64,000 nucleotides of DNA from Candidatus Dojkabacteria bacterium (GTDB lineage Bacteria; Patescibacteriota; Dojkabacteria; SC72): contig JBMNHC010000001.1 of assembly GCA_050950165.1 (NCBI GenBank), forward strand, positions 191,151 to 255,150, in the 5' to 3' direction. The notes beneath the pieces are model-generated. The model did no database searches. It was not told the DNA's origin and saw only the letters and a program-made list of their open reading frames with translations. Below are positions 11,801 to 56,079 of the stretch, in pieces. The stretch's first letter is position 1; each line of letters opens with the position of its first letter. Made by a program: the position numbers and the translations under genes.

Positions 11801-13180
11801 TTAATTAATTATTCCTCCGAAACCTTTAAATATTCCAACTAAAATAATTAACCACCAAGCTCCAAGAGTAAACAGGCTTCCTGCATTTTTTCCTAACAAT
11901 CCTTTCTTCCAATATACGTAAACTTCTATCATTAAAAGTATAAATACAAAGGTTACTATACTCAAGCTAATACCATCTACTGTTCCTAAAAAGTTCTTAA
12001 ACCACAGAGCAAGGCTAGGAGAGTGTGTTACTTGTTCATCTCCTTCCAAAAAATACTCAGAGATGTCATGCTCCATTGTATTACCAACTTCATCTCCAAT
12101 TATAATTAATGATTTATCCCCTATTTCATCTTTAGCGATTCCTAATACGGCATATCCATCTTCTGTAATCTCAAAGTCATAAATTTTATCACCTGTAACA
12201 AATCTCAAGGTGTGCATATCTTCTTCAACTTTAAACATTATTTCAAAGCGATCTTCTTGTTTCTTAACTGCAACACTTTCACGAGCTAATACAGGTGGTG
12301 TTGAATCTATAGTAAAAATAACTTCTTTTGATTTTACTCCTAGACCTTTAACTTGTGCTGAGATCTTCTGCTCTCCTTCTTCCCAATCACTTACTTTGTC
12401 ATACTCCCACTCTGAGCTACTACTTTCTACTTCCCCAATGATTTTACCTTCATCAAGAATTTCTACAAAATATGAACCTTTGATATTTTTTACTTCTCCC
12501 TTAATATTTACATTGGCATCTTGTAAAATATCTCCACTTTTAGGGCTAGTTATACTAATTGATTTAATCTCTCCTTTGTCTACGATGGATGGTTTGACAC
12601 TTTCTACTGCTTTAACAGGAGGTGACGTTTTGTTCACTGAGCTTGTGAGATTACCAAACATCTGAACTACTAATATTGTTTGTTTTCCTTGCAAAACTCC
12701 TTCTACAACTGCAACTCCAATATCTTTGTACTTTCCACTCATTATGTTTTCTCTGTGTGTAGGGCTAGCCATCCAAGCTTCATGAACACCTTCTGCAGTT
12801 CTAAATCCTTTCGCAAGATTTTCACCAGCATATACATAGGTATACCCAGCTTGAGAGATAAACATCCAAGGTGTTTCCCCATTAGGACCGAAGTGATCCC
12901 AATATTGTTCTTGAAACATATTGTTAGCTTTAGCTTGGGCTGCTGCTGAGAGTCTAGAGTCTGTCTTTAGAGTATTTAGACCTGCTGCAGATCTCTCTTG
13001 ATTGGTTAAATTAATGATATTATTAGGGGTAATTGTACTCGCCATTGCTTCTGGAATCCCAAGAAGACCACCAAACATATTAACCAAAAGGAGAACTATC
13101 GTATACATAGTAAGAGCCACTTTTCCTAACAAATATGGCTTGTAATTATTTTTTTTGTTTGGAATAAAAAAGCTCTTCAT
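11801..13180 (-). CDS. Membrane-anchored CAP/SCP (YkwD-like) domain protein
   Basis: N-terminal signal-anchor. CAP domain pattern LN.ERS.AGL..L..D..L..AA..KA.NM....YWDH.GP.G...W.....GY....GENLA.G. C-terminal TM helices. Confidence 0.6.
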   Translation of the reverse strand: MKSFFIPNKKNNYKPYLLGKVALTMYTIVLLLVNMFGGLLGIPEAMASTITPNNIINLTNQERSAAGLNTLKTDSRLSAAAQAKANNMFQEQYWDHFGPNGETPWMFISQAGYTYVYAGENLAKGFRTAEGVHEAWMASPTHRENIMSGKYKDIGVAVVEGVLQGKQTILVVQMFGNLTSSVNKTSPPVKAVESVKPSIVDKGEIKSISITSPKSGDILQDANVNIKGEVKNIKGSYFVEILDEGKIIGEVESSSSEWEYDKVSDWEEGEQKISAQVKGLGVKSKEVIFTIDSTPPVLARESVAVKKQEDRFEIMFKVEEDMHTLRFVTGDKIYDFEITEDGYAVLGIAKDEIGDKSLIIIGDEVGNTMEHDISEYFLEGDEQVTHSPSLALWFKNFLGTVDGISLSIVTFVFILLMIEVYVYWKKGLLGKNAGSLFTLGAWWLIILVGIFKGFGGIIN

Positions 13181-13589: not shown

Positions 13590-13957
13590 GACTTTAAAAC
13601 CTCCTTTCTTTAGAGATACGGTGCCACAAATCCTGATATCATAGGATTTGTACAACCTCATGAATAAAATAGCGTAAATAAAAAGCTACTTCAAGCTTAA
13701 TTTTATTATAGGACCCTTAAAAAACTATATGAAAAGCCTCTCTGAATATAGCTTTTTTAATAGAATACGAACAAAGAATTTGCTAGCCCATTATGACATA
13801 TTCTAAGAAAAATATTGGCATATCACTGTTTCATTAAACGCCCTGCTAGAAACCCTTTAGGAAAGGCACAATTGACATAAGCACAAAATTTAAACCTTTC
13901 TGATAGTTCAGCATTTTTCTAATCAAAATGTGTACATATTATCATTTCATTAACGGA

Positions 13958-13988
13958 AAGGGAGGCTTAATTGCCTCCCTTCTTTTTC
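13958..13988. terminator. Strong GC hairpin (AAGGGAGGC-TTAATT-GCCTCCCTT) with a T5 tract on plus. Candidate terminator, strand ambiguous.
   Basis: Perfect 9-bp stem. CTTTTTC follows on the plus strand. It lies about 50 nt downstream of the rny stop on the minus strand. Confidence 0.45.
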
Positions 13989-14035
13989 AATCACTTCCAA
14001 GTACCTGTAGTATTGCTTACTAGAAGTTAGCTGGA

Positions 14036-15568
14036 CTAGCGAGCTATTTCCACAGATCTTGTCTCTCTAATCAATGTAACCTCCACATTCCCAGGATAAT
14101 TTTGCGTCTTCTCAATACTCTGAGCAATATCCTTTGCCAAAACAGTCATCTCATCATCAGAGATTAACGCAGGCTTAACTATCACCCTTAACTCTCTACC
14201 AGCCTTAATCGCAAACACCTCCTCCAACTTATCACCACCTAACTCCTTAGCTACATTCTCCAAAGACTCAATCCTCTGAATATACTGCTCATAACTATCC
14301 TTTCTAGCACCAGGTCTCGCACCTGAAATAGCATCAGCAATATACACCAACACCGCCTCAACAGACTGAGGCTCAATATCCAAGTGATGACTCTCAATCG
14401 CATTAACCAACTTCTCATCCAAACCATACTTCCTAGCTACCTGCCCCGAAATATGATGATGAGGACTATCCACCTTGTGTGTTAAAACCTTACCCACATC
14501 ATGCAAAAGACAAGCCCTCTTAACAAGACTAACATCTGCCCCCAATTCTGTAGCCAACACCTCCCCAACCTTCATCATCTCTAAAGTATGAGACATTAAA
14601 GACTGCCCATAGCTAGTTCTGTACTTCATCTTTCCAATCAATTTCAAAAGACCAATATCAATACCTGGCCAATCTGCCTCCTCAGCAAGAATCTGCCCAT
14701 TCTTCTTTATCTCAATTGAAATCTCATTCTTTGCTTTTCTAATCGCTTCCTCAATTGACCCAGGATGAATCCTACCATCTCCAATTAACTTCGTTAGCGC
14801 AACAGACGCTATCTCTCTACGAAGAGGATCAAAAGACGACAAAGCTATCGTGTTAGGAGACTCATCAACTATAACATCGACACCCGTCAACTTCTCAAAC
14901 GCTCGAATATTCCTACCCTCCTTACCAATAACTCTACCCTTCACCTTATCATCATCAATTTTAATAACAGAAGTCGTAGTCTCACTAACATAATCAGTAG
15001 CAATTCTCTGCATAGACTCGACTAAAATCTCTCTTGCCTTCTCCTCCGCCGTCTCCTCAACTCTCTTCTCTGCCTGCCTAATCTTTTTAGCCTCGTAATT
15101 TTTAATATCCTCATCCACCTGACTCATCAACTTCTGCCTTGCCTCCTCCTGAGTCAAACCAGAAATCTTCTCCAACTCCTCCTTAAGCTGACTCTTACTC
15201 TTCTCCAGCCCTCTCTGCATCCTCTTTACATTCTCCGACGCAACCTCCAACTCCTCACTCTTCTGATCCAACATCTTTGTTCGAGTATTAAGCTTCTTCT
15301 CCCTCTCTATTAACAAACTCTCATGCTCCTGAGTCTCCTTCCTCATCTGCCTCAACCTACCCTCCGCACTCTTCTTCTCCTCCTCTATCTCCTTCTCCGC
15401 CTTCTCAATCTTCTCACCAATTAACTTGTTTGCAACCCTCTCAATCTCCTCCTCCGGAATATTCCTTACATCCACCCACTTCCTTACATACTTCAGATAA
15501 GAAAAAACAACAATACCCCCCAACAAAGCCGCAACAAAACCAATAATGTAGTCCATCACTCTACTCAT
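14036..15568 (-). CDS. rny: Ribonuclease Y
   Basis: 510 aa. N-terminal TM, long K/E coiled coil, KH domain (GKEGRNIRAFEKLTGVDV) and HD domain (LLHDVGK). Confidence 0.9.
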   Translation of the reverse strand: MSRVMDYIIGFVAALLGGIVVFSYLKYVRKWVDVRNIPEEEIERVANKLIGEKIEKAEKEIEEEKKSAEGRLRQMRKETQEHESLLIEREKKLNTRTKMLDQKSEELEVASENVKRMQRGLEKSKSQLKEELEKISGLTQEEARQKLMSQVDEDIKNYEAKKIRQAEKRVEETAEEKAREILVESMQRIATDYVSETTTSVIKIDDDKVKGRVIGKEGRNIRAFEKLTGVDVIVDESPNTIALSSFDPLRREIASVALTKLIGDGRIHPGSIEEAIRKAKNEISIEIKKNGQILAEEADWPGIDIGLLKLIGKMKYRTSYGQSLMSHTLEMMKVGEVLATELGADVSLVKRACLLHDVGKVLTHKVDSPHHHISGQVARKYGLDEKLVNAIESHHLDIEPQSVEAVLVYIADAISGARPGARKDSYEQYIQRIESLENVAKELGGDKLEEVFAIKAGRELRVIVKPALISDDEMTVLAKDIAQSIEKTQNYPGNVEVTLIRETRSVEIAR

Positions 15569-15815
15569 AAAAATTTAATCAATCCTTGATTTTGAAGAAA
15601 GAAAAACGAACCTACAGCAGATTCTAACTCGCTCTTATATATCTATTAATAAATATACTATTCAAAATTTTCATTAATTCAAAATTCTTCTATCCTCTTC
15701 TCCTACAAGCCTCCCAACAATTTTGGCTACATCAAGGACTTTCCAATAATATCATTTTTACCCAAATCTTTCTACCTCTGTCAGAAACAAATCCCCCCAA
15801 CCCCCAGCCACCAGA

Positions 15816-15837
15816 GGTCTGTCCCAAGTCTGTCCCC
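15816..15837. repeat. Left flanking inverted repeat of the IS200-like element (tandem GTCTGTCC doublet)
   Basis: GGTCTGTCCCAAGTCTGTCCCC. Its reverse complement matches 16311-16332 at 19/22 positions. Confidence 0.6.
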
Positions 15838-15876
15838 ACTTCATGCCGATTTCACCTCTCTCTGCTATCCTTAACC

Positions 15877-16311
15877 ATGTCACGCACACCTCGCAACTTC
15901 CAACCGAACAGCTTCTACCACGTATTCAACCGTGGCAACAACAAATCTTCCATCTTCCGAACATCTTCAGACAAGCAACTATTCCTCAGCCTACTATACA
16001 AATACAACAAAGAGTGTGGAATCAAAATCCTCACTTACTGTATCATGGAAACACATTTTCACCTTGTCATAAGAACAGGTGGAAACCCCAAACTCCTTTC
16101 GAAATTTATGCAAAAAATATGTACGAGCTTTGCGATTCAAATAAACAGAAAATACCAGAGAGTCGGGCATGTTTTCCAAAACAGGTACAACGCAAATCTC
16201 CTAATGTACAAAAAAGACTTGCGCAGAGCGATAGACTATGTCAGAAAGAACCCGGTACAGGAGGGATGGGTGAGAAAGCCGTCGGAATACAGGTGGAACA
16301 AGCGAGAGTAG
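15877..16311 (+). CDS. tnpA: IS200-like / REP-associated Y1 tyrosine transposase (RAYT-type TnpA)
   Basis: 144 aa. YHVFNRGNNK..IF..D.D...FL..L.......GIKILTYCIMETHFHLVIR. The HuH motif is HFH. Confidence 0.8.
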   Translation: MSRTPRNFQPNSFYHVFNRGNNKSSIFRTSSDKQLFLSLLYKYNKECGIKILTYCIMETHFHLVIRTGGNPKLLSKFMQKICTSFAIQINRKYQRVGHVFQNRYNANLLMYKKDLRRAIDYVRKNPVQEGWVRKPSEYRWNKRE

Positions 16312-18503: not shown

Positions 18504-19451
18504 ATGCAAAAAAGAGTAAAATGTGTGTTCTTAGGTAGTAGCTGGGAATCTGTTGAAACCCTCAAAGCACTACACCAAGACAAAAGATTTAACGTAGTAG
18601 GCGTAATAACTGGCGTAGACAAACCAGTAGGTCGAAAACAAATACTAACCCCCTTCGAAGTAAAAAAGTATGCCTTAGATAGCGGTATAGAGGTTTTTCA
18701 TACAGAAAAAAACGTTGATAGGTACCAAAAAGCAATCGAAATCTTTAAACCAGAACTAGTCGTATGCAAGGCATTCGGTGAGCTAATCCCAAAATTCTTC
18801 CTAGAATATCCAAAATACAAAGCAATCAACATCCACTTCTCTCTACTACCAAAATACAGAGGAGCAGTCCCAATTCAAAAAGCCATACTCGAAGGAGAAA
18901 AAGAAACAGGCATCTCAATCATGCTAATGACAGAGAAACTAGATGAAGGAGACATACTAGAAGTATTCAAAGAACCAATACTCCCAACAGACACAAACCT
19001 CTCTCTAAGAACTCGCCTAGTCAAAAAAAACGCAGAAGTAATTGGAGATGTACTAATGAAGTGGATAAACGGAGAAATATCTCCTAAAAAACAAGACCAC
19101 AACAAAGCCACATACTGCTGGCAACCAGATATCTCCAAAGAAAAAGCAGAAATCCGATGGGAAGAAATGGAACCTGAATACATTGAAAGACTAACAAGAG
19201 CAATGATACCATGGCCAGTAGCCTGGACGAGACTACACAACGGCAAAACCCTAAAACTCTTCTCTGTACAACTCCTTCCCATACAATCCTCTCTTGCTCC
19301 CGGAACTCTACATCGCAAAAACAACATGCTACTCCTCTCTACCAAAGACCCAAACCTCTCTATCAGAGTACTAGACGCACAAATCGAAGGAAAAAAACGT
19401 ATGAATGAAAGAGACCTACTCAACGGATTACCTCTTAACAAAAATGCGTAA
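18504..19451 (+). CDS. fmt: Methionyl-tRNA formyltransferase
   Basis: Formyltransferase motif NIHFSLLPKYRGAVPIQ and C-terminal domain. ATG at 18504 is chosen because the longer ORF-track start overlaps queA. Confidence 0.85.
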   Translation: MQKRVKCVFLGSSWESVETLKALHQDKRFNVVGVITGVDKPVGRKQILTPFEVKKYALDSGIEVFHTEKNVDRYQKAIEIFKPELVVCKAFGELIPKFFLEYPKYKAINIHFSLLPKYRGAVPIQKAILEGEKETGISIMLMTEKLDEGDILEVFKEPILPTDTNLSLRTRLVKKNAEVIGDVLMKWINGEISPKKQDHNKATYCWQPDISKEKAEIRWEEMEPEYIERLTRAMIPWPVAWTRLHNGKTLKLFSVQLLPIQSSLAPGTLHRKNNMLLLSTKDPNLSIRVLDAQIEGKKRMNERDLLNGLPLNKNA

Positions 19452-19796
19452 GCACCAAGTAAGCCAGATTCTGTATCAAACGATCATCTATCTATGCGGC
19501 TTTGCCTTGCTCCAAGAGGGGGTTACCACGCAGTAGCACATTACTGCACTACCCGGTGGTCTCTTACACCACCATTTCACCCTTACCCAGCTAATTTATA
19601 GTATGAACCTCTACCTACCACTACACCATATTCATACTACAGATTAGCTGGGCGGTATAACTTTCTGTTGCCCTTTTCTCCGAAAGATCACTCCCTCCCA
19701 ACTTTCGTTGGCTCTTACCTCTAATGTGAGACAACACGGAGTCTGGACTTTCCTCACTAATTATTAATTAGCGCGACCGTATATGATACTTACGCT
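19446..19796 (-). ncRNA. rnpB: RNase P RNA (bacterial type A)
   Basis: The minus strand contains GGAAAGUCCAGACUCC (P4 5' strand), GGGUAAGGGUGAAAUGGUGGUGUAAGAGACCACC (P10-12 region), GGAGCAAGGCAAAGCC, and ACAGAAUCUGGCUUA (P4 3' strand), closely paralleling E. coli M1 RNA. P1 pairing is GCGUAAG/CUUACGC. A TATAAT -10 box lies at 19801-19806 on the minus strand. Ends are approximate. Confidence 0.85.
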
Positions 19797-41815: not shown

Positions 41816-43246
41816 CTAATTAATTCTAGCCAATAGCTTCTGTGCATCATCTGTTGTTAATCTCTGCATATCATACTCTATAGATTTTTTAGAGTAGTTT
41901 CTGGCCTCATCTAAGTTCCCCTCTTGAAACTTTAGATATCCCATTAACAAATTATACCTAGGGTCATATTTATCCAATTCCCAATATGTATCCAGAGTCC
42001 TCTTTGCCTCATCCAATTCGTTATTCTCTATAGCAATCTTTGCTCTCCAGTATAGATACTCTCTCTTGTATTCACCCTCTAACTCCTCGTACTCTACTTT
42101 TTTAGAATAGTACAAAATCTTTTCACTCTGCTTTGTTAAATATGAAAGCTTAATGTAATAGATATCTACCCAAGGCTCTTTAAACAAAAGACTTGCTTTT
42201 CTTAAAACCTCTTCAGCCTTTGTAGTCTGATTATTACTTAGCAGTAAATCTATATACTCTTGATACAACTTAACATCCCCATTATCTCCTCCAAAAGATA
42301 CTGCACTATCATAGTAAGAGAATGCGTTGTTCAAATCGTCTAACATATAGTAATTACGTGCTACTAACCAATATAGATATTGATTTAACTTACTTAATGT
42401 CGTCACTCCAACTAATGTATCCAAACTCTTCTGATAATTACCACTCTCATAGTACCCTTTCGCTAAGAGATAGAGTCCATCTACATACTCTCCCATATCT
42501 TTTTTAACAGGCTCTAATACAACTACTGCTAAGTATGGGAATTCTGCACTAAGATAGCTATTTGCTAACTTAGCTCTGTTGTACAAGTTATTATCATCTA
42601 AACCATTTAAAGTAGCCTTCCAATCAGCATACTCTTCTTTCATACCCTCCGATGGCTCTATTTTAGATATCTCACTCTCTGCTTTTTCATAGTCCGAAAG
42701 AGCCAAGATATATGATGAGATTAATCTAACTTCTTCAACTAAATCTGTACTAAAAGTAGTTTTTAAAATACTCTTCGCCTTTTCAATATCTCCCTGTTGC
42801 AAGTATGTTTTAGCAATATTTAAACGTACAGAGTCATTATCTACATCAGCAGATTTTGCTAATTCAAAACAAACTAATGCCTGAGAATATTCATTACGAT
42901 TATAGAAGGCCTCACCAACATCTTCATACAGCAGTGCCCTATCCTTATCATTTAGCTTGTTCGCTGACTCATCCACTATCTTCTTTGCATCTTCTACTCT
43001 CTGCTTTTCTAAAAGCAAATTTACTATCCTTTGATGAGCTTCAAATTTAGAAGGAATTAACCTAGTAGCATCACTTAAAATCTCCATAGCAGAGGAGTAC
43101 TCTTTACCTTCAATTAATAGGTCTGCCTGAGATATTAGTTGATCATATTTAGCGATATCCTCTTTAGAGGGTGTACAACCAGAAAGTAGCAATACACTAA
43201 CTAAAAGGATAGCCATATACAATATTGTTTTGTGTAAGTTTTTCAT
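41816..43246 (-). CDS. TPR-repeat lipoprotein
   Basis: Lipobox LLSGC at the N-terminus. Multiple tetratricopeptide-like repeats. Confidence 0.6.
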   Translation of the reverse strand: MKNLHKTILYMAILLVSVLLLSGCTPSKEDIAKYDQLISQADLLIEGKEYSSAMEILSDATRLIPSKFEAHQRIVNLLLEKQRVEDAKKIVDESANKLNDKDRALLYEDVGEAFYNRNEYSQALVCFELAKSADVDNDSVRLNIAKTYLQQGDIEKAKSILKTTFSTDLVEEVRLISSYILALSDYEKAESEISKIEPSEGMKEEYADWKATLNGLDDNNLYNRAKLANSYLSAEFPYLAVVVLEPVKKDMGEYVDGLYLLAKGYYESGNYQKSLDTLVGVTTLSKLNQYLYWLVARNYYMLDDLNNAFSYYDSAVSFGGDNGDVKLYQEYIDLLLSNNQTTKAEEVLRKASLLFKEPWVDIYYIKLSYLTKQSEKILYYSKKVEYEELEGEYKREYLYWRAKIAIENNELDEAKRTLDTYWELDKYDPRYNLLMGYLKFQEGNLDEARNYSKKSIEYDMQRLTTDDAQKLLARIN

Positions 43247-43317
43247 ATTTATACCAACTAGATATTCCTAATCCATTTTACACATGTTTTTACAATCATG
43301 CTATACTCCTTAATACC

Positions 43318-44289
43318 ATGCTCAAGTATAAGAGAGTATATACTGATATTGATATACAAAGAAGAAGAGAAAGGTACAAGTTTAAACAAAAGATACTAAT
43401 TACTTTACTAATAGCTGTCCCCCTATTAACCATATTTCTGCTCTCTTCTGCAAACATTTCCGCTCTAGCTAGTGAAGTGAATAACGTTAGTTCGGATTTT
43501 GATATTAAATATCTAGTATTTGGAACTAATACTGAAGTAGAGAGAAGCTCTAGAAGACCAAAGCTCATTCATATAAAGAGAGGAGAATATGTATATACAA
43601 TATTTACACTAGAAACAGATATATACAAAATATTACAGGGATCTTTCATAAGTCTGAATAGTAAAGATAGGGTCATTATCAATACTGAATATATTAAAAA
43701 TGGTAGTTTAGTAAGGATAGTACAAACAGAGAGTCTAATTGAGCAGATAGAGATAGAGATACCGTTTAATTCAGAAACTATTAAAACTGATAAATATGCT
43801 AAAGGAGAACAGAATATCCTTCAACAAGGAGTTTTAGGAGTCAAAACTCAACAATTACTTAGCTACTATGAAGACGGAATATTAGTAGATAGAGTAATAC
43901 TTGCAGAAAGAGTTGTTAAAGAACCTGTCAAGCAGATTGTAGAAATTGGAACAGCTTTCTACTCCCTAGCAGGTATAGAACCTAGAGGATATAACTGTCC
44001 ATATTGGTATCAAGTAGTAGACGCAGGTCCATATACAGAGGAAGAGAAGAGATGGCTAAAGTTTGTAATGCACTGCGAGTCAGGTTGTAATGCGGAATCT
44101 AACAAAAACTTCTACAAGGGACTCTTTCAGTGGAGTCCAACAACATGGAGAAAGCAATTCTCTGAAAATATCTTTGATGGACATGCACAGATAAAAAATA
44201 CTGTTTCTAAATATAGGGCTGGAGAAAGTACAAGAGCAAACCAATGGCCAGCTTGTAATAAAAAGTACAATGAACAATCCTCACAATAG
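43318..44289 (+). CDS. RpfB-like secreted protein: G5 domain plus Rpf-type transglycosylase-like domain
   Basis: Signal anchor. G5-like segment (GEQNILQQGVLGVKTQQ...YEDGILVDRVILAERVVKEPV.QIVEIGT). C-terminal CESGCNAESN....YKGLFQWSPTTW matches the Rpf transglycosylase-like signature. ATG at 43318 is preferred. Confidence 0.6.
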   Translation: MLKYKRVYTDIDIQRRRERYKFKQKILITLLIAVPLLTIFLLSSANISALASEVNNVSSDFDIKYLVFGTNTEVERSSRRPKLIHIKRGEYVYTIFTLETDIYKILQGSFISLNSKDRVIINTEYIKNGSLVRIVQTESLIEQIEIEIPFNSETIKTDKYAKGEQNILQQGVLGVKTQQLLSYYEDGILVDRVILAERVVKEPVKQIVEIGTAFYSLAGIEPRGYNCPYWYQVVDAGPYTEEEKRWLKFVMHCESGCNAESNKNFYKGLFQWSPTTWRKQFSENIFDGHAQIKNTVSKYRAGESTRANQWPACNKKYNEQSSQ

Positions 44290-46371: not shown

Positions 46372-47565
46372 CTACAACTCCTTAATATATTTCTGATAGA
46401 CCCAACCTAGACTACCCTCTTTATACACAATCTCATACCATCCTTCCTCTTTTTTAGTTGTAATAAATACATCTCCGTCATTAGCCACCTCTACTTTTTT
46501 ACAGCTATACCATCTACAATCTCTAATATTTACAAATCCATACTCTGGTGAAACAACCTCTACCAACTTATGAGAACCAGCGACAATTTTAAATTTTACT
46601 TCAAACTTAGACCCTTCAAATAGAGAACCAACATCTTTTGTAAAGACAAATTTCTCTCCATACTCACCAGGTCTATTCTTTGCAGCCATAAGGAAGTTAA
46701 CCTCTATACTATCTCCAGGTGCTAAATACTTCCCTTCGATATATGCTGGTTTACTAAAACTTTGCCAAACTGAATTAATAGCATATGGACTCTCCTTACC
46801 ATTTTCTGTAGAGATATATACATACTTTTTATCTAAAAACCAAGGGAAATCATTCTCATTCATTACTTTTACTTTAACAGGCAACTGCTTCCCTATCTCT
46901 ATCTCTTCTGGATACTCAACGCTCTCTATACTAGCCTTATACTCTAAATGCTCTGCATCAGACCACTTAACAGAACTTAAAGCTCCATCTATCTCTGTTC
47001 TTAACGAAGAGAGAGACTTCTGAGCTACCATATATGATCTTTGACTCTCTTTACTAACAATTTTTAGATCAACAAAATCCCATGAACCTTTCACAATACC
47101 ATATCTGTAAGAGAGAGTTTCGACTAATTCTTCTAACGATGTACTAACTCTAGGTGTTAAAGAAGAGCCGTCACTTAACAATCCAATCAATACGATATTT
47201 TCTCCACCTTGTAATCCTGGATTAGCCCCAACACCTCCCTTTGAAACCTCATACACATTTCCCCCACCATCTATTAAGTAGTTGTAAGGGATATCATTTA
47301 GCTTTAATCTTGTAATACTGTAGTAGTAGATTGCTCTAATTAATCCTTTAGAATTATTCTTTAACTCTTCATTCCCAACATGAACCTGAGAAATATATAT
47401 CTTCATGGGTTGAGAATAGAGGACCTGTTGCTCAGCTAAGGCATCATCTAGTTTTAAATCTTGCCTATTTACCACTTCAAAAGCAGATACTACAGATCCA
47501 CTTGTAAAAAGTAAGACAACAAAAAGAACTAATATTATAAATCTATTTAATATCTTCATTAGCAT
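46372..47565 (-). CDS. Secreted Amidase_2 (PGRP)-like peptidoglycan amidase homologue with C-terminal SH3b-like domain
   Basis: Signal peptide. IYISQVHVGNE...IRAIYYY...DIPYNYLIDGGGNVYEVSKGGVGANPGLQGGENIVLIGLLSDG matches the Amidase_2 pattern. C-terminal GWYEIVYKEGSLGWVYQKYI is SH3b-like. Confidence 0.45.
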   Translation of the reverse strand: MLMKILNRFIILVLFVVLLFTSGSVVSAFEVVNRQDLKLDDALAEQQVLYSQPMKIYISQVHVGNEELKNNSKGLIRAIYYYSITRLKLNDIPYNYLIDGGGNVYEVSKGGVGANPGLQGGENIVLIGLLSDGSSLTPRVSTSLEELVETLSYRYGIVKGSWDFVDLKIVSKESQRSYMVAQKSLSSLRTEIDGALSSVKWSDAEHLEYKASIESVEYPEEIEIGKQLPVKVKVMNENDFPWFLDKKYVYISTENGKESPYAINSVWQSFSKPAYIEGKYLAPGDSIEVNFLMAAKNRPGEYGEKFVFTKDVGSLFEGSKFEVKFKIVAGSHKLVEVVSPEYGFVNIRDCRWYSCKKVEVANDGDVFITTKKEEGWYEIVYKEGSLGWVYQKYIKEL

Positions 47566-47585: not shown

Positions 47586-48554
47586 TTACAAAGCAATATA
47601 TCTAGGATTTACACCATTAACATAAAAGAGAGCAGGTACTGAATACTCTAAATCATCTTTGTACACCTTACATGTACTTGATATCTTAAAAACTGGAAGT
47701 AGATATCCTTGATTAGTATCTTTGTACAGAAGTATTACCTCAGATTTATCTGCAATACACCCTGTCACACTCTCTTCTATCTCTGTCCAAGAGTCATCTA
47801 GGTAGTGTAAATCTAATGTCTCTACTAATACCGAGGTATCTACATAGTGCTCTTTTGGATATTCTTTTAGATTAATATATGTTTCTAATTCCTTTCTATC
47901 AATTAAAGGAAGGAAAAAATCATACTCCTCTATCTCAGCAAGAAGAAGAGATGCTGATACAAGTTTTCCATTTTTATCAAACTTTAAAACATCCGTATAT
48001 TCATATGCATAACTAAACTGTATCGGTATATCTCCTAATACTCTAGATGCATAATATGTAGTGCCTCCATCTAAATCTCTATGTTCTTTGTTTAAAACAA
48101 ATTTATACTCCCAACCTAAATACCTATTAAAAAGTTCAGAAAATCCATCTACTCCCTTCGCCATAGATATACCTTCCCCTAGTTGAAAATTGAGGACATC
48201 TTCTAACGAATTGTATGAGAAAGTACTCTTTCCATCACTCCATTTAATAGAGGTATCCTTCTCTATCTCTTCTTTCTTTAAAACAAGACCCAACTTAGAG
48301 ATCAACTCCTCTATATTTGAAACATGTACTTTCATAAGGACAGAGTAAACAGGAATATCTTTACCCTCTCCCTCCCTTTTCATATCCGATATGTTCACAG
48401 TAACATTACTCTTCCCTAAGTTATTAGCTTCTAGAGGTTCTTCAGGATATTTTTTCTTGTTAACCAAATATATTATCCCTACTACTAGTAATATTAAAAT
48501 TAGGGAAATAATAATTACAAAAAATATATTTTTCTTACTCCATACAATTTTCAT
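47586..48554 (-). CDS. Membrane-anchored extracytoplasmic hypothetical protein
   Basis: N-terminal TM. 322 aa. No recognisable domain. Confidence 0.45.
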   Translation of the reverse strand: MKIVWSKKNIFFVIIISLILILLVVGIIYLVNKKKYPEEPLEANNLGKSNVTVNISDMKREGEGKDIPVYSVLMKVHVSNIEELISKLGLVLKKEEIEKDTSIKWSDGKSTFSYNSLEDVLNFQLGEGISMAKGVDGFSELFNRYLGWEYKFVLNKEHRDLDGGTTYYASRVLGDIPIQFSYAYEYTDVLKFDKNGKLVSASLLLAEIEEYDFFLPLIDRKELETYINLKEYPKEHYVDTSVLVETLDLHYLDDSWTEIEESVTGCIADKSEVILLYKDTNQGYLLPVFKISSTCKVYKDDLEYSVPALFYVNGVNPRYIAL

Positions 48555-48571: not shown

Positions 48572-51196
48572 TTACCTAGGTCTACTACAGCCAGATTCAT
48601 CAGGTACTGAACATCCAAAGCTTTGCAAAAGAGACAGGGGATCAACTACAGACCCATTCTGCTTTGTTTCTAAATGCAGATGAACACCAGTCCAACAGTT
48701 TCCTACTTCTACTTCAGGAGGTAGTTGTACAACAGCAACTGCCTGACCACTACCTAGCTTCTCTCCTAGTGATGCTAATGGTTTAACATGTAAGAACTTA
48801 AAGAAATATGTATTTACACCATCTGAAGCAGTTAACTCTACAATACCACCTGCCTTAGAATTGTCTCTACAGTTAATAACTGCAATTCTAGTAATACGGC
48901 AATCTCCAGAAGAACAGAACTGAGGAGCATAGATATTTCCTACACTTGTTAAGTCAACTGGCATATTACTGGTATAGTTTTGATGGCTCCAACCTTGTAC
49001 ATCTTTGTACCCTTGAGAACATCCGTAAGAGCCTGCACCGAAAAGACATTGTTCTCCTGATGGAGGAGGAATTATAGGTTGGCCCCATGGATATTCTCCA
49101 CTTGTCAACTCTTGTTCTTCATATGCAGAGCACATAATTGTTGTACCTGGTACTGTGTGGTAATACGAAAAGTTTTTCCTAAAGAAAGACTTAGTAGCAC
49201 TTGCAGCTGTAAACCAGACTACTGCTATCACACCAAAAAGACCTATTAAAGCATATTTGGCAATTACAAAAAGCTGACCAATAACTCTCATAACAAAGCC
49301 AGAAATTGCTTGAGTCAACAATGCTGCAACAACAGTTCCAATGGGACCTAAAGTTATACCCAATGCTGCTGCCGCTGCTCCAATAAGTGATCTTACAAAT
49401 ACATCAATACCCCCCTTTGCTACCCATTTCTCTAGTAAGTGCAAAGCTTGTGATTTAACAAACCAATTCCTAACAGTAGGATTTTTTAAAAGCCAATCCA
49501 TTACTTTTGTACGAACATCTTTTAACTTCCCTTGGAAGAACTGGTTTGCCTTCTGCTGTACTCTATATATCCCACTAAAAGCATGGGTTAGTTTTTTAAA
49601 GGTCTTTCCTGAATTTAAAAGTTTAGTTAATTCCTGCAGATCTACATCTTTATTTCCTGCAAGACTATTAAGTAGATTTTCAACAAAAGTATCAATATCC
49701 TTACTACTGAATCCAGCATCTAAAGATTCGGCAGTTATGCCAAGTCCAGCTAACTTGTCAAAACCAGGAAGTTTTTTAATCTTGTCCAACCTATTATTCA
49801 ATAAATATGCAAAGCCTTCTCCATTGTAAAAGAATGTTTTAAATATAGATCTAGGCGTTAAGTAGTTTAAATTTGTCATTACTTGGTTATACTTACCTAG
49901 CATTTTAGAAGGGACCTCTCTTTTAACGAGTATTCCGTCTACGCCACCTACTGTTTTCTCACTTGATGGAAGAAAAAGAGAGTTTAGATTTTTATCATAA
50001 ATAGAGCCATTAAGAATAGAGCCAACAAAGTTAGCACCATAGAGATTAGAGAAAGAGTTGTAATATCCTTCTAACTGCCCAATTCGACCAAGTAGAGTAT
50101 GCCCATTAACTACACGCAAAGCTCCTTTAGCATCTCTCAATTCTTTCCTCAATCTTTTCTTCTCAGCAGAAGTAGTTGCACTTTTAAGATCCGTTCTAAG
50201 TTGTTCTATTGTATTATTTAATTCCAACCTATCCCTATCTAGAATATATCGAGCCTTTTTATACACTCCCCGTTGCTCATCAGAGATAGTAGGATCTGCA
50301 ATTCTGTCATCTAGGTTATCCCTCTCTAACGACTTGTAAAGCTTTCCTGCAAAAATATCTACTCCTTCACTCTCTTTAAGAACTCCACCAACAGCTCCTG
50401 TAAATCTAGTTTCAATATCTGGAATAGTATGGCCATATCTTCTAAATAGCTCTCGTCCTACTTCTAATCTAGAGTTAGCTAGCGACCCATCAGGTCCACT
50501 TTCTCCCAAAAGTTTTGAAAAATCTGCTTTATCCTTCTCACTTAAACTTAACCAACTACTACCAAAAGTTTTTCTTCCTAAAAGTTCAAACGATCTGTTT
50601 GCCATAAAATCAAGATCTCTAGGCGAGAATCTCCCTCCTACAGCAGTTCCCTGTATCTTAGATTGAGGATCTCCTGAATGAGATGCACCATACTGTCCTA
50701 ATGCTCTCTCTATTGCATAACTATCTGCTCTGCTAATAGTTCCTCCTAGTACTGCACGCTTTGCTTCTTCATCTCCATATTTATGTGCCCACGCAGTTGT
50801 GATTACATCCTCTGCCAAAGCACCAAGGAAAAGAGCTCTCTGACTCTTACGGATAGCATTTTGGGTCTTAATTGCTTTATCAAATGCTGCAGCAGGATCT
50901 CGAAGAAAATCAATCATACCCATGGTTGTAAACTTCACACTTCCGTACTCACCATACTTTATTCTCCCTATTTCAACATTCAATGCATCATTAAACTCAC
51001 TGATAACGGTATCTGAAACAAAAGCACCAGGTCTTTCCAATGCAGCAAATATTCCATCTGTTAATTCACTATCTGCTGCTATACCAGTTGGAGTAATGGG
51101 TCTTCTCCTCTCAGGAGGTTTTTTTGATTCTTCAAAAAGAAAATCAAATACACTACCTAAAGCATCATAATTGTCTGACTTAGGTTTATTTGCCAT
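48572..51196 (-). CDS. Large membrane protein: ~600-aa N-terminal domain without signal peptide, TM bundle, C-terminal M23 (LytM) metallopeptidase domain
   Basis: 874 aa. Hydrophobic helices around aa 615-680. C-terminal ...GNCWTGVHLHLETKQNGSVVDPL is the M23 HxH motif. Confidence 0.6.
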   Translation of the reverse strand: MANKPKSDNYDALGSVFDFLFEESKKPPERRRPITPTGIAADSELTDGIFAALERPGAFVSDTVISEFNDALNVEIGRIKYGEYGSVKFTTMGMIDFLRDPAAAFDKAIKTQNAIRKSQRALFLGALAEDVITTAWAHKYGDEEAKRAVLGGTISRADSYAIERALGQYGASHSGDPQSKIQGTAVGGRFSPRDLDFMANRSFELLGRKTFGSSWLSLSEKDKADFSKLLGESGPDGSLANSRLEVGRELFRRYGHTIPDIETRFTGAVGGVLKESEGVDIFAGKLYKSLERDNLDDRIADPTISDEQRGVYKKARYILDRDRLELNNTIEQLRTDLKSATTSAEKKRLRKELRDAKGALRVVNGHTLLGRIGQLEGYYNSFSNLYGANFVGSILNGSIYDKNLNSLFLPSSEKTVGGVDGILVKREVPSKMLGKYNQVMTNLNYLTPRSIFKTFFYNGEGFAYLLNNRLDKIKKLPGFDKLAGLGITAESLDAGFSSKDIDTFVENLLNSLAGNKDVDLQELTKLLNSGKTFKKLTHAFSGIYRVQQKANQFFQGKLKDVRTKVMDWLLKNPTVRNWFVKSQALHLLEKWVAKGGIDVFVRSLIGAAAAALGITLGPIGTVVAALLTQAISGFVMRVIGQLFVIAKYALIGLFGVIAVVWFTAASATKSFFRKNFSYYHTVPGTTIMCSAYEEQELTSGEYPWGQPIIPPPSGEQCLFGAGSYGCSQGYKDVQGWSHQNYTSNMPVDLTSVGNIYAPQFCSSGDCRITRIAVINCRDNSKAGGIVELTASDGVNTYFFKFLHVKPLASLGEKLGSGQAVAVVQLPPEVEVGNCWTGVHLHLETKQNGSVVDPLSLLQSFGCSVPDESGCSRPR

Positions 51197-51212: not shown

Positions 51213-52691
51213 TTACTTAAACATACTTCCAATTAAAGGTATCTTAGAAAGACTTGCTTTTGCTGCTGCCATACCCTCACCTACAGCCTTAGGCGAACTT
51301 GGTGGGAACCAACTTTCTAAGAACTTAGGAGCTTGTGCTGCAAAGTAGAGTACAAATATTTTAAGAATAAATAACAAAAAACCAGATGTGGCATTGAGCC
51401 CATCTGGGTCATAGACATTTGGGTCTGAATTAACTAATTTACCTGGGAAACTAAGTAATAACTTGTCTCCAGATTTTTGTATTGCAGTTGGAATATTTAC
51501 AATAAAGAGTACTACTGGAAATACTAACACATTCCTCAGGATTGAAAGAAACCAGTTTTTAATCATATGACTATTACCTGGTAGTGCTCCTGCAGTTATT
51601 TGAATGGGAGCCAATATGACAGAAATTAACAGAGAGAATAATGCTTTATACAATGCTATTAACACCTTAATAGCCCCAACTACAATTATACCTAATACTA
51701 CCAAAAGAAGTATTAATCCAATAGTTCCGAGGATTGTAACTCCTTTTCCGAGCCATAACCATTTAGTAGCAGAACCAATTACTTTACTAATCACTGCAGT
51801 TAGTCCTTTTCCTCCAAGTACCAAACTTCCACTAGTCACTCCTCCCCCTATAAAAACTCCCCAACCCATTACTGCTTTCATTAATCCTCCTAGTGTAGCA
51901 ATAGAGCCTGCTTCCATTCCCCCTTCTCCGAAGATAAACACAAGAAGACCTGTTAATACTCCTCCTAAATCTATAATCAGACCTGCTATTGCAAAACTAA
52001 AAGTAGCAAGTACTAAAGCCACTATTACTCCAGGCAATACATTACCTATCGTCACCATAGTTTGCCCTCCTAACTTGTGTCTAAACATAATCATAAATCC
52101 TGCAATAATCATAATAATTACAAAAACAACATATGAAAGATTTAACACCCTGTTCCAGAGACCTACAATACCACTATCTGTTAACACCTGATACCCTGAA
52201 TCATGAGTTGCTGCATACAAGCTAACACTATTCTCTGCATACCCAGGAACCCACTGCTGTGCTAAATGCTCAGGGACATTAACAGTAGGGTATATTGCAT
52301 ATGCAAAATCTCCAGCATCAGATGCTAAACCCAATACTCCTCTCTTTAAGTCATAAGGGATATTAGGATTATGCTTTATTAACTCACTATACTCAGATAT
52401 CTCCTCCCCACCTAATAGGGAAACTCCAAGCCATGCACTATTCATCAGTTGCAATCCTCCGCTACTTGCCATATTGTCATCATTTATATCAGCTCCACTC
52501 ACTTGGTTATGAAACTGTTTAGTACCTTCAAAGTCGGGCGTAATTTTAACATCCTCCTGTGCATATACATTCAAAACACCAAAAAAGAAGAGAAGACTAA
52601 GACAGAAAAGCAAGGAGTTATAAAAGGCTTTCCTACTTACAAAGTCTTTTATACTCACAATCCCCTTATATATTTTGTATGAAATACTCAT
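51213..52691 (-). CDS. Polytopic membrane protein with secreted N-terminal domain and Gly-rich TM helices (VirB6/TrbL-like topology)
   Basis: 492 aa. Signal peptide, ~170-aa extracytoplasmic domain, then at least 6 glycine-zipper-rich TM helices. Confidence 0.45.
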   Translation of the reverse strand: MSISYKIYKGIVSIKDFVSRKAFYNSLLFCLSLLFFFGVLNVYAQEDVKITPDFEGTKQFHNQVSGADINDDNMASSGGLQLMNSAWLGVSLLGGEEISEYSELIKHNPNIPYDLKRGVLGLASDAGDFAYAIYPTVNVPEHLAQQWVPGYAENSVSLYAATHDSGYQVLTDSGIVGLWNRVLNLSYVVFVIIMIIAGFMIMFRHKLGGQTMVTIGNVLPGVIVALVLATFSFAIAGLIIDLGGVLTGLLVFIFGEGGMEAGSIATLGGLMKAVMGWGVFIGGGVTSGSLVLGGKGLTAVISKVIGSATKWLWLGKGVTILGTIGLILLLVVLGIIVVGAIKVLIALYKALFSLLISVILAPIQITAGALPGNSHMIKNWFLSILRNVLVFPVVLFIVNIPTAIQKSGDKLLLSFPGKLVNSDPNVYDPDGLNATSGFLLFILKIFVLYFAAQAPKFLESWFPPSSPKAVGEGMAAAKASLSKIPLIGSMFK

Positions 52692-55743: not shown

Positions 55744-56079
55744 TTACTCTCTTTTAGATACTATTCCTTCTACAAACCCAGAAGCTGCAGCTAGTATAGA
55801 TGATATCTTTCTTACAGGAGACACTATCGCACTATTTAACTCATATACAGTACCTTTTACTGTAGACACTATCTCCGTAGCATCTTCTAAAATTGTATTA
55901 GCCATATCTACAGTTTTACTAGCTTTCTGTATAACATCTCTAGAATCTGCTACTGCTTTTCTAGACTCTTTAATTAACAGAGCTATCTCAAAGAGAATAA
56001 AGGAGAAAAACCCTACTAACACACCAATAATTATCATCCAATACATAGGAGGAATTGTTTGCATACTTCTAATATTCAC
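55744..56079 (-). CDS. Small membrane protein (DUF948/YtxG-like architecture)
   Basis: N-terminal TM then an amphipathic helical region. Co-directional with the upstream island. Competes with antisense ORF 55697..56101. Confidence 0.4.
   Translation of the reverse strand: MNIRSMQTIPPMYWMIIIGVLVGFFSFILFEIALLIKESRKAVADSRDVIQKASKTVDMANTILEDATEIVSTVKGTVYELNSAIVSPVRKISSILAAASGFVEGIVSKRE

Follow-up and report, generated by a model that had tools for sequence, protein, structure and literature searches.

The gene that we call g5 raises a simple question: how does a peptidase of the kind that cuts cell walls come to stand behind some 600 residues that lack a signal peptide, and what might such a protein do in an ultra-small, uncultured member of the Dojkabacteria? 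The initial annotation described an 874-aa protein, called its topology inverted for a wall hydrolase and compared it with conjugation hydrolases of the PrgK/TraG type and with phage tape-measure proteins. Here we examined g5, its relatives and its neighbors in the window, i.e., the whole 64-kb stretch of DNA analyzed (Table 1).

Table 1. Positions in the window of the seven operon genes and of the features of g5
Feature	Position	Strand	Basis or remarks
g1, small membrane protein of ~106 aa	55744..56064	(-)	One TM plus helices; weakly DUF948-like
g2, N-terminally anchored surface protein of 538 aa	54086..55702	(-)	fn3/Pur_ac_phosph_N-type domains
g3, N-terminally anchored ectoprotein of 447 aa	52714..54057	(-)	Cys-rich (12 Cys)
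g4, polytopic membrane protein of 492 aa, VirB6/TrbL-like	51213..52691	(-)	Fold; sub-threshold Pfam matches in orthologues
g5, ORF of 874 aa	48572..51196	(-)	ATG to stop; stop codon 48572-48574
g5 N-terminal domain, aa 1-596, putatively cytoplasmic	49409..51196	(-)	AF2, composition
g5 conserved N-terminal peptide, aa 9-38 (NYDALGSVFDFLFEESKKPPERRRPITPTG)	51083..51172	(-)	Family alignment; sequence verified
g5 most conserved N-domain motif, aa 447-463 (TPRSIFKTFFYNGEGFA)	49808..49858	(-)	Alignment of relatives
g5 membrane-anchor block, aa 597-665	49202..49408	(-)	Hydropathy, family profile, AF2
g5 linker, aa 666-715	49052..49201	(-)	Conserved P683, C689 and PPPSGE stretch
g5 M23/LytM-type peptidase head, Cys-rich, aa 716-874, putatively extracellular	48575..49051	(-)	Fold and profile
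g5 H738...D748, presumed zinc-ligand pair	48953..48985	(-)	Conservation; motif order
g5 H803 in FLHV, counterpart of the M23 catalytic His	48788..48790	(-)	Conserved 36/36
g5 H839-L-H841, HxH motif	48674..48682	(-)	Each His conserved 36/36
g6, bitopic protein of 322 aa	47586..48554	(-)	N-terminal TM and ectodomain; 17 nt downstream of g5
g7, secreted protein of 397 aa	46372..47565	(-)	Amidase_2/PGRP-like, Ig-like and C-terminal SH3_3

Layout and topology of g5

The ORF of g5 was found at exactly the coordinates first given for it, on the minus strand, which had not been specified, and a 724-kb contig in NCBI encodes an identical protein, named 'MAG: M23 family metallopeptidase [Candidatus Dojkabacteria bacterium]'. 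The protein consists of three parts, a ~596-aa helical N-terminal domain, a hydrophobic block and a Cys-rich C-terminal domain, so that the proposed order of leaderless N-terminal domain, anchor and C-terminal M23 peptidase holds. The N-terminal domain is nearly all alpha-helical with two small beta-hairpins in the AF2 model (pLDDT 77.7), and its per-residue confidence and secondary structure describe mostly confident helical elements rather than one low-confidence extended helix. Searches of Pfam, NCBIfam, PDB sequences and PDB folds with this domain returned zero matches, in agreement with the earlier view that it has no recognizable motif; a Walker A motif occurs in only 1 of 166 family members. 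We regard it as an orphan domain of ~600 aa with strongly conserved motifs of its own. Near the N-terminus, a family-wide signature, Y[ED]xALxSIFDFIF..K.P.K.KP.K.TG, is visible in all the family N-termini listed, and a degenerate five-residue core of it is found within the first 60 residues of 139 of the 166 members, where it nearly always starts at residues 14-19. This peptide is possibly a docking motif. The most conserved motif lies deeper in the domain, where Y445, P448, G459, E460 and F462 are invariant among 48 relatives.

The reported lack of a signal peptide extends to the family: the maximum 19-aa hydropathy of the N-terminal domain of g5 is 0.84, with no TM or signal-like segment, and 165 of the 166 members have no such segment in their first ~68 aa. 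Cysteines are distributed very unevenly, with 0 in the N-terminal domain of g5 vs. 9 in the last 205 aa, and nearly all the 166 relatives follow the same pattern (0-2 in the first 600 residues vs. 4-17 in the tail).

Hydropathy places the hydrophobic block directly before the enzyme domain. The family-averaged profile resolves this block into a short helix flanked by K/R (597-612) and two further helices, one hydrophobic (614-636) and one strongly so (645-665), which are separated by a turn rich in K/R (637-644); K/R residues are found at 594-605 and 637-644, while the turn at 613-618 is uncharged. The AF2 model contains helices at 597-612 and 618-664, the latter drawn as one helix of 47 residues. 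Given the family-averaged profile of aa 597-665, the original description of three hydrophobic helices is a fair one. Since the K/R residues in this profile lie next to those helix ends that would face the cytoplasm, we infer three membrane crossings in an N-in/C-out orientation, although two would be conceivable from the sequence alone. Such a three-pass anchor would leave the helical N-terminal domain in the cytoplasm and place a disulfide-stabilized peptidase outside. The neighboring exported protein g3 is likewise Cys-rich, which is counted toward an outside location of the tail.

The C-terminal head and its exchange within the family

The C-terminal domain of g5 is a real but divergent M23/LytM peptidase, as judged from profile and fold comparisons. 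It misses the gathering threshold of Pfam PF01551 (17.0 vs. 28.7 bits, E = 0.0069), but the same Pfam family matches 16 of 25 relatives in a permissive search (E up to 10), with a best E of 9.7e-18, and relative P0042 scores 64.6 bits. The family profile identifies LysTt72 and ShyA in the PDB at E~2e-3. When the AF2 model was compared with PDB structures by Foldseek, LytM (2b13) was matched with a probability of 1.0 and an E of 4e-3, LysTt72 (8s3m) with a probability of 1.0 and LECT2 with 0.96; M23 proteins were also matched at a probability of 1.0 in the BFVD fold search.

The GVHLHLE...NGSVVDP motif that was first noticed near the C-terminus is indeed there, at aa 837-853 of 874. The canonical zinc-binding motif of M23 peptidases is HxxxD. 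It is absent from g5, which carries H738-x9-D748, with an unusual spacing but in the expected order; from this motif order, H738 and D748 are presumed to be the zinc ligands. Within the M23-type subgroup of relatives, H738 is conserved in 32/36 members and D748, H803, H839 and H841 in 36/36 each, and five Cys of the head are invariant, the query having nine. Thus, the head resembles those of the M23 family (LytM, lysostaphin, ShyA and LysTt72) in fold, HxH motif, catalytic His and upstream His...Asp, and differs from them in its sub-cutoff Pfam score, H-x9-D in place of HxxxD, several conserved Cys and its fusion to a large cytoplasmic domain via a multi-helix anchor. The predicted motif set suggests that the head is catalytically intact.

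Further comparison within the g5 family, which comprises ~250 clusters, revealed that exchange affects the outer enzyme, whereas the N-terminal domain and anchor stay conserved. Besides M23, the heads found on this scaffold include an orphan HExxH domain, additional CHAP or VanY domains and a Cys-peptidase-like tail.

The operon and its VirB6-like member

g5 is the fifth of seven tightly packed envelope genes, with intergenic gaps of 16-41 nt. The first of them, g1, probably starts at the ATG at 56064 and not at the GTG at 56079; its orthologues align from residue 6. In relatives with identities down to 24%, the seven genes are orthologous and stand in the same order between rsmE and uvrD, and the most distant family member keeps g3-like, g4, g5 and g6 genes elsewhere on its chromosome. 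The best conserved partner of g5 is g4, which ends 16 nt upstream of it. g3 ranks with the fastest-evolving genes of the operon, and g6, for which no sequence match was found, is orthologous at every locus, whatever the type of head. g7 matches SH3_3 at E 2e-5 and Amidase_2 at E 0.086 (1e-4 in an orthologue), and is probably a wall-binding subunit. By-eye comparison revealed no His in the segment of g7 that usually bears it; therefore, its amidase domain may be degenerate. The remaining neighbors in the window are housekeeping genes (IF2, NusA, PNPase, RsmE/B, UvrD, EF-G, EF-Tu and ribosomal proteins). Taken together, the best explanation of these observations is an envelope module that is specific to Dojkabacteria.

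The protein encoded by g4 may connect this module to known machinery. Its AF2 model (pLDDT 79) was compared with the PDB by Foldseek, where the top 6 matches and those at ranks 8 and 10 were all chains of TrwI/VirB6 of R388. The best match had an E of 0.028 and a probability of 0.99, with TM-scores of 0.27/0.41; four of the chains, which are effectively one protein, had probabilities of 0.93-0.99, while the next unrelated fold was matched with a probability of 0.13. Like TrwI, g4 is polytopic, with a helical ectodomain at the N-terminus and a TM bundle after it. No match to TrbL (PF04610) was found with the g4 protein of the window, but its orthologues match TrbL more often than any other Pfam family, below the cutoff in 3 of 32 (best E 0.0017 in a search allowing E up to 10). 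One orthologue scores 17.4 bits vs. the cutoff of 25.9 and covers HMM positions 44-212 of 215. hhalign comparisons with the single sequences of PrgH and TrwI detected no homology. Unlike VirB6/TrbL proteins, g4 has sequence scores that are all below family cutoffs and is not adjacent to virB4. On these marginal statistics of fold and profile, g4 may be regarded as VirB6/TrbL-like. The earlier statement that no other phage or conjugation genes are nearby consequently stands for phage genes and needs to be revised for conjugation genes.

Of the other parts of a type IV secretion system (T4SS), VirB4, VirD4, VirB3 and VirB8 are recognizable neither in the 64-kb window, operon included, nor within ~9 kb past its low end; the flanks of nine related loci also contain no VirB4-like ORF. 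It should be noted that the T4SSs of Patescibacteria are chromosomal and without relaxases, that sequence searches often miss their VirB1 and VirB6, and that the VirB4-positive genomes listed include those of Dojkabacteria (PMC12102498, including its Table S1).

The closest counterpart of g5 in layout is PrgK of Enterococcus faecalis pCF10, in which a TM helix joins an intracellular N-terminal domain (1-253) to extracellular domains (LytM/MUR/CHAP), and which binds PrgL, the product of a downstream gene (PMC11323569). Known VirB1 homologues of Gram-positive bacteria are all membrane-anchored with external enzyme domains (PMC12857230). The layout that had been called inverted was thus correctly described, while the label was overstated, since PrgK has the same N-in/C-out design (PMC11323569; PMC12857230). 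Both proteins combine an intracellular domain, an anchor and an external LytM/M23 domain, with CHAP in some relatives, and their sizes are similar (874 aa for g5 and 871 aa for PrgK). In pCF10, prgI and prgJ separate prgK from the VirB6-like prgH upstream, and the gene for the bitopic partner, prgL, directly follows prgK; g6 has the position relative to g5 that PrgL has relative to PrgK, and both are bitopic. Its place and bitopic layout would make g6 a candidate for the VirB8-like (NTF2-fold) partner that is encoded downstream in DELTA-class systems, but its sequence gives no match. The differences are also clear. The intracellular domain of g5 is ~596 aa and helical in a model of fair confidence, vs. 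~253 aa in PrgK; the anchor is a three-helix block instead of one TM helix; and the M23 domain of g5 retains all the catalytic residues, while PrgK combines a degenerate LytM domain with an active muramidase, an SLT/muramidase domain being absent from g5. The g5 locus is core-chromosomal and has no VirB3/VirB4 genes between g4 and g5, whereas PrgK is encoded on a plasmid. No homology was detected between the g5 family profile and PrgK by hhalign (probability 0.07, E 0.71) or between the sequences of g6 and PrgL. The suggested likeness to PrgK/TraG is therefore retained for the layout and the VirB6-like neighbor and abandoned for sequence homology. By inference from its predicted topology, g5 would match the layout of the PrgK-like DELTA-class hydrolases, with TraG of pIP501 and Orf14 of Tn916 as looser parallels.

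Function and origin of the module

We favor, with moderate confidence, the interpretation that g5 is a membrane-anchored peptidoglycan endopeptidase and one subunit of a Dojkabacteria envelope module that is built around a VirB6-like protein. Because g5 adjoins the VirB6-like gene, its product probably provides a membrane machine with a passage through the wall: the peptidase would cleave peptide cross-links of the cell's own wall beside the VirB6-like complex and in this way open or maintain the passage. The precedent is that VirB1-like anchored hydrolases, such as PrgK and TraG, serve the T4SSs of bacteria with a single membrane. Together with its conserved N-terminal peptide, the cytoplasmic domain could tether or gate the enzyme, with docking either to the complex or to partners in the cytoplasm, e.g., a VirB4 ATPase encoded elsewhere. 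A putative coupling of a cytoplasmic domain to local wall cleavage, as was originally suggested, remains the best reading of g5. The exchange of heads parallels the domain variety among T4SS hydrolases and is counted in favor of this T4SS-like interpretation.

It is rather unlikely, in our judgment, that the VirB6 likeness of g4 is coincidental and that the operon encodes a lineage-specific autolysin complex for wall remodeling or cell separation. In such a complex, the cytoplasmic domain would connect the peptidase with cues from division or growth, functionally like FtsEX-EnvC/PcsB but in one polypeptide. The class-wide synteny, the strictly core location beside translation and RNA-processing genes and the presence of g7 (Amidase_2-like with SH3) as a second wall-directed protein are consistent with it, as are the absence of a secretion ATPase nearby and the marginal VirB6 evidence for g4. 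Given that the T4SS genes of Patescibacteria are themselves core-chromosomal (PMC12102498), the core location favors neither the autolysin nor the T4SS-like interpretation. Two independent methods single out VirB6/TrbL for g4 among thousands of alternatives, no division or elongation proteins are recognizable in or beside the operon, and frequent head swaps within one class would be unexpected for an enzyme with one conserved self-substrate; all three observations speak against an autolysin complex.

In some phage tape-measure proteins, e.g., Pb2 of T5, hydrophobic segments occur together with an M23 domain at the C-terminus. The module might similarly be directed at a host, the helices and head acting on the host envelope as in T5 Pb2 and the exchangeable heads matching different host wall chemistries; both parts of this proposal seem unlikely to us. 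The variety of heads (M23, HExxH, CHAP, VanY and Cys-peptidase-like) on a constant scaffold, the fast evolution of g3 and g6, the fn3 surface proteins of the operon and the weak resemblance to M23-carrying tape-measure proteins would all suit such a device. In Saccharibacteria, the T4SS genes and adjacent peptidase/lysozyme genes are essential for epibiotic growth, according to the account given in PMC12102498, which cites Wang et al. (2023). Against a host-directed device, there is no sign that g5 is released or exported, its linker of only ~50 residues is too short to span the cell's own wall, the tape-measure similarity is not significant, and the N-terminal domain is predicted to be a set of mostly confident helices with two beta-hairpins instead of one extended helix. 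We give somewhat less credence still to a combined proposal in which the operon is a VirB6-derived Dojkabacteria envelope conduit without an ATPase of its own, with g5 as docking platform and wall breacher whose heads are tuned to host peptidoglycan, opening the host or the junction to feed.

As a further alternative, the N-terminal domain could be an extracellular, wall-spanning stalk, either because the anchor crosses the membrane twice and both termini are outside or because a dedicated export route exists. We consider this very improbable. In its favor, only 614-636 and 645-665 are uninterruptedly hydrophobic in the family-averaged profile, the loop between them is K/R-rich, and the domain is nearly Cys-free like the exported proteins of some Gram-positive bacteria. 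On the other side, leaderless export of ~600 folded residues is implausible in a family of which 165 of 166 members lack a signal peptide, the K/R residues at 594-605 favor a cytoplasmic N-side, the neighboring exported g3 is Cys-rich and not Cys-poor, and PrgK provides a precedent for an intracellular N-terminal domain (PMC11323569).

The least tenable explanation, that g5 is a prophage tape-measure protein or the remnant of an integrative conjugative element (ICE), is effectively refuted by the housekeeping neighbors, by the same chromosomal position in relatives with 24-61% identity and by the absence of phage or ICE genes (phage genes, VirB4/VirD4 or a relaxase) from the 64-kb window. The GC content of the locus is unremarkable, and the core-genome context recurs in every member examined. 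In linear order (a long helical region, hydrophobic helices and M23), g5 does resemble tape-measure proteins, and the annotation of the pCF10 PrgK record as 'phage tail tip lysozyme' illustrates the traffic of such enzymes between phages and conjugative elements. Unlike tape-measure proteins, g5 has no significant sequence or fold similarity to them and no accompanying tail genes: PHROG tape-measure matches (E 0.016-0.095) are confined to the region around the hydrophobic block, BFVD matches have probabilities of 0.08-0.12, and IMG/VR contains no relatives. The resemblance to prophage tape-measure proteins that had been pointed out is thus not sustained. With the N-terminal domain not predicted to be extracellular, unmatched by any tape-measure or conjugation protein and outside any prophage or ICE, the initial reading of this domain survives.

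In surveys, counterparts of VirB1, VirB6 and VirB8 are often undetectable in whole classes, which has been attributed to extreme divergence, and in the sole cultivated and genetically tested patescibacterium, T4SS genes and adjacent wall hydrolases are described as essential for growing on the host (PMC12102498). Against this background, the locus provides candidates for the missing T4SS parts in Dojkabacteria, i.e., the VirB6-like g4, the PrgK-style g5 and the bitopic g6, all of them in a core operon that is separate from virB4. If the link to VirB6 proved spurious, the operon would still represent a class-wide and uncharacterized wall-remodeling complex. What is new in g5 is the cytoplasmic domain on a PrgK-style anchored hydrolase, and its family offers a natural series of head swaps with which the cytoplasmic control over an external wall enzyme may be probed.

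Domain structure and topology of g5

The g5 gene encodes an 874-aa protein, running from ATG to stop in a small patescibacterial (CPR) chromosome with a GC content of ~35%, and the database entry of an identical protein is titled 'MAG: M23 family metallopeptidase [Candidatus Dojkabacteria bacterium]'. The features reported by the initial annotation, i.e., the ORF itself, a C-terminal M23 motif, a hydrophobic block and an N-terminal domain without a leader, were all present. The C-terminal domain, in which GVHLHLE (aa 837-843) is followed by NGSVVDP (aa 847-853), is a predicted, divergent M23 peptidase with an intact motif set. PF01551 matched g5 with an E of 0.0069 and 17 bits, below the Pfam threshold of 28.7 bits, and when E values up to 10 were allowed, it matched 16 of 25 relatives, the best of them with an E of 9.7e-18. 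The AF2 model of g5 (48 relatives as input; pLDDT 77.7, pTM 0.58) matched LytM (2b13), phage LysTt72 and LECT2 in PDB (Foldseek, probability 0.96-1.0) and many phage M23 proteins in a search of viral structures, and the family profile matched LysTt72 and ShyA in PDB (E~2e-3). H738 was found in 32 of 36 M23-type relatives, while D748, H803, H839, H841 and five cysteines were found in all of them. Judging from the order of the motifs, the zinc site would include the upstream His-Asp pair (H738 and D748), which is spaced as H-x9-D vs. the canonical HxxxD.

The N-terminal domain (~596 aa) was modeled by AF2 as nearly all helical with two beta-hairpins. Searches for a homologue of this domain yielded none: Pfam, NCBIfam and PHROGs gave no match beyond chance, permissive Pfam scans of 25 relatives found no family, PDB sequences gave no match in single-sequence or profile searches, and the whole model matched PDB and viral structures through its M23 head only. 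An ATPase was also considered for this domain and rejected, a Walker A motif being found in 1 of 166 family members. A peptide of the form Y[ED]xALxSIFDFIF..K.P.K.KP.K.TG, which matches no known motif, was seen in all the family N-termini listed, and its degenerate five-residue core occurs within the first 60 residues of 139 of 166 members, nearly always starting at residue 14-19. This peptide is among the best-conserved parts of a family whose identity elsewhere falls to ~20%. A second motif, TPRSxFKTFFYNGEGFA, lies at aa 447-463 of g5 and contains several invariant residues.

The hydrophobic block (aa 597-665) was resolved into four elements by family-averaged hydropathy and charge profiles. 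A short helix (597-612) with K/R at 598 and 602 leads into a G-x-x-x-G-P turn that has no charged residues; next come a hydrophobic helix (614-636) with a K/R-rich stretch (637-644) behind it and a strongly hydrophobic helix (645-665). We infer from this pattern that g5 is a three-pass, N-in/C-out protein, in which the peptidase would be external and the two K/R clusters would face the cytoplasm. The distribution of cysteines agrees with this topology: each of 166 relatives had 0-2 in its first 600 residues, and nearly all had 4-17 in their tails. The exported neighbor protein g3 is likewise Cys-rich. A two-pass anchor with both termini outside is compatible with the sequence alone, but it needs ~600 residues to be exported without a leader. 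The maximum 19-residue mean hydropathy in the first 580 aa of g5 is 0.84, below the level of a transmembrane segment or signal peptide, and 165 of 166 full-length relatives lack a hydrophobic segment in their first ~68 residues. We thus regard an extracellular N-terminal domain as very improbable.

Family range and exchange of the external head

The g5 family is uncharacterized and class-restricted. Its profile found only 246 clusters among 1.84 billion representative proteins, the full-length members being mostly ~800-1270 aa long and their source names being Dojkabacteria/WS6, apart from a few probably mislabeled bins. This range rests mainly on source names, with at least eight loci found in a scan of genome contigs.

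The N-terminal domain and anchor are kept throughout the family, while the external head is swapped. In addition to the Cys-rich M23 head of the g5 type, we noticed a classical M23 head (relative P0042), M23 combined with CHAP (P0028 and P0091) or with VanY, a D-Ala-D-Ala carboxypeptidase (P0172), and a tail that by eye resembles a papain-type Cys peptidase (P0171). About 30% of the family, including P0027, P0029, P0031, P0034, P0036, P0040, P0043 and P0048, instead carry an orphan Cys-rich domain of ~150 aa with an invariant HExxHxxQ...EWGAD. By motif, 90 of 166 members are of the HxH type, 49 of the HExxH type and 27 of other types. The HExxH head looks like a zincin-type metallopeptidase as far as its motif goes; Pfam and PDB gave no match to it other than one at chance level (eCIS_core/DUF4157).

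The conserved operon and its polytopic component g4

Seven genes on one strand, with 16-41 nt between neighbors, make up the operon, and g5 is the fifth of them. The operon is flanked on one side by rsmE/rsmB-PNPase-S15-IF2-NusA and on the other by uvrD-(G5-domain protein)-TPR-EF-G-EF-Tu together with the operon for ribosomal proteins. The seven genes, their order and their chromosomal place are kept around relatives with 46, 30, 28 and 24% identity and around a 993-aa relative found among the representative proteins, and all seven genes are mutually orthologous between the loci compared. In the most divergent member examined (P0189, locus L019), only g3-like, g4, g5 and g6 genes are present, relocated between queA and tgt and without fn3 and SH3 genes beside them. 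The g4-g5-g6 triad is thus the core. The idea that g6 confers immunity to one particular head was rejected, since operons of the M23 type and of the HExxH type have orthologous g6 genes.

Features of the operon and its surroundings (nt positions in the window)
Feature	Position	Strand	Description
YkuD L,D-transpeptidase	1681-2547	-	
543-aa ORF	5142-6773	-	
CAP/SCP-domain protein	11801-13180	-	459 aa
RNase P RNA	19444-19793	-	
G5-domain protein	43225-44289	+	
g7	46372-47565	-	Last operon gene; secreted; signal peptide, Amidase_2/PGRP-like, Ig-like and SH3_3 domains
g6	47586-48554	-	322-aa bitopic protein
g5	48572-51196	-	M23 peptidase
g5 N-terminal peptide	51083-51172	-	aa 9-38, ..ALGSVFDFLF..KKPP.RRRPI.PTG
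g4	51213-52691	-	492-aa polytopic protein
g3			Anchored Cys-rich protein
g2			Anchored fn3 protein
g1			Small TM protein

In g7, the segment that normally contains His reads 'IYYYS' when compared by eye, so that the Amidase_2-like domain may bind the wall without cutting it. An extra 1162-aa surface protein of the Pur_ac_phosph_N/fn3 type is encoded ahead of the operon in the P0138 lineage (loci L017/L018), which suggests expansion and contraction of the cluster in its adhesin-like part. Promoter and terminator scans gave counts that were not above those of shuffled sequence.

Elsewhere in the window, the G5-domain protein is encoded between uvrD and the TPR gene on the opposite strand and is kept in relatives; its listed TTG start overlaps the 5' end of the TPR gene and its N-terminus ahead of the TM segment appears non-coding, so its true start is probably further downstream. 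The YkuD L,D-transpeptidase and the CAP/SCP-domain protein are further envelope genes of the window, and the CAP gene is also found near the triad of L019. No Pfam family matched the 543-aa ORF, whose 'HDIGK' stretch recalls HD-domain phosphohydrolases; a second assembly (L023) likewise has this ORF beside trmD. Between 14000 and 20000, GC is 0.41-0.47 vs. ~0.35 elsewhere and both strands carry overlapping ORFs; the only Rfam match above gathering thresholds there was RNase P RNA, with no rRNA.

The 270 relatives of g4 are all unnamed Dojkabacteria/WS6 proteins, and g4 itself matched nothing in Pfam, NCBIfam or PDB sequences, nor in a tblastn search of all PLSDB plasmids. Its AF2 model (95 relatives, pLDDT 79.1) had one meaningful match among PDB structures in Foldseek, TrwI, the VirB6 of the R388 T4SS, which took ranks 1-6, 8 and 10 (best values: E 0.028, probability 0.99, ~340 aligned columns; TM-scores of 0.27 by query and 0.41 by target); the next unrelated protein had a probability of 0.13. 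Independent of this fold match, TrbL/VirB6 (PF04610) was the most recurrent Pfam family among 32 g4 orthologues scanned singly (3 of 32, best E 0.0017), and its alignment in one orthologue covered HMM positions 44-212 of 215 with 17.4 bits vs. a cutoff of 25.9. Comparisons by hhalign with TrwI and with PrgH, the VirB6-like protein of pCF10, were negative, these single-sequence templates having low sensitivity. Taken together, g4 is probably VirB6-like. The claim that no conjugation genes lie nearby is contradicted at fold level by this gene adjacent to g5.

Relation to anchored wall hydrolases of secretion systems

Gram-positive VirB1-like hydrolases are all membrane-anchored with external enzyme domains (PMC11323569; PMC12857230 section 10). 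In PrgK of pCF10 (DELTA class, 871 aa), a single TM helix (254-274) joins an intracellular N-terminal domain (1-253) to an external part made up of a degenerate LytM domain, a muramidase and a CHAP domain, and PrgK binds the VirB8-like PrgL encoded directly downstream (PMC11323569; PMC12857230 section 10). The N-in/C-out layout predicted for g5, which had been called inverted topology, is not unusual among anchored T4SS hydrolases. The g4-g5-g6 order is like that of prgH...prgK-prgL in pCF10 (prgH, prgI, prgJ, prgK, prgL, with prgJ encoding VirB4), minus VirB3/VirB4. PrgK and PrgL showed no sequence homology to the Dojkabacteria proteins by hhalign (single-sequence templates, low sensitivity), and the likeness is thus one of design rather than demonstrated membership. 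It should be noted that the RefSeq name of PrgK (13609-16224 of pCF10) is 'phage tail tip lysozyme', and automatic names of such hydrolases mix phage and conjugation vocabulary.

The T4SSs of Patescibacteria lie on the chromosome and lack relaxases, and VirB4 occurs in 18 of their 20 classes; VirB1 homologues are rarely near virB4, and VirB6 and VirB8 are often undetectable, which was attributed to divergence (PMC12102498). Table S1 of that study lists at least two Dojkabacteria genomes as VirB4-positive (PMC12102498). No VirB4, VirD4, relaxase, ICE or phage genes were found in the 64-kb window, in agreement with the initial annotation as regards phage, or in the ~9 kb read beyond its low end.

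We consider it about an even call that g5 is an anchored wall peptidase that opens a passage beside a VirB6-like complex. In this model, the external head would cut peptide cross-links of the producer's own wall next to the g4 complex and so create or maintain the passage, while the cytoplasmic domain and N-terminal peptide may tether or gate the enzyme, possibly via a VirB4 encoded elsewhere. A lineage-specific autolysin or division complex is an unlikely alternative. Somewhat less likely still is a host-directed breaching device, in which the exchanged heads would track host wall chemistry. A phage or ICE remnant is hardly credible in the conserved chromosomal context, and the suggested likeness to tape-measure proteins, like a prophage origin, was rejected on this context together with PHROGs, viral folds beyond the head, and IMG/VR, which held no g5 relatives.

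The g5 family has a new cytoplasmic domain and a new operon context, and in design it resembles a known kind of protein, the anchored secretion-associated wall hydrolases. It would be of use to research on patescibacterial envelopes and T4SS diversity, but the statistics of the VirB6 link are marginal. Its head variants on one scaffold represent a natural domain-swap series.
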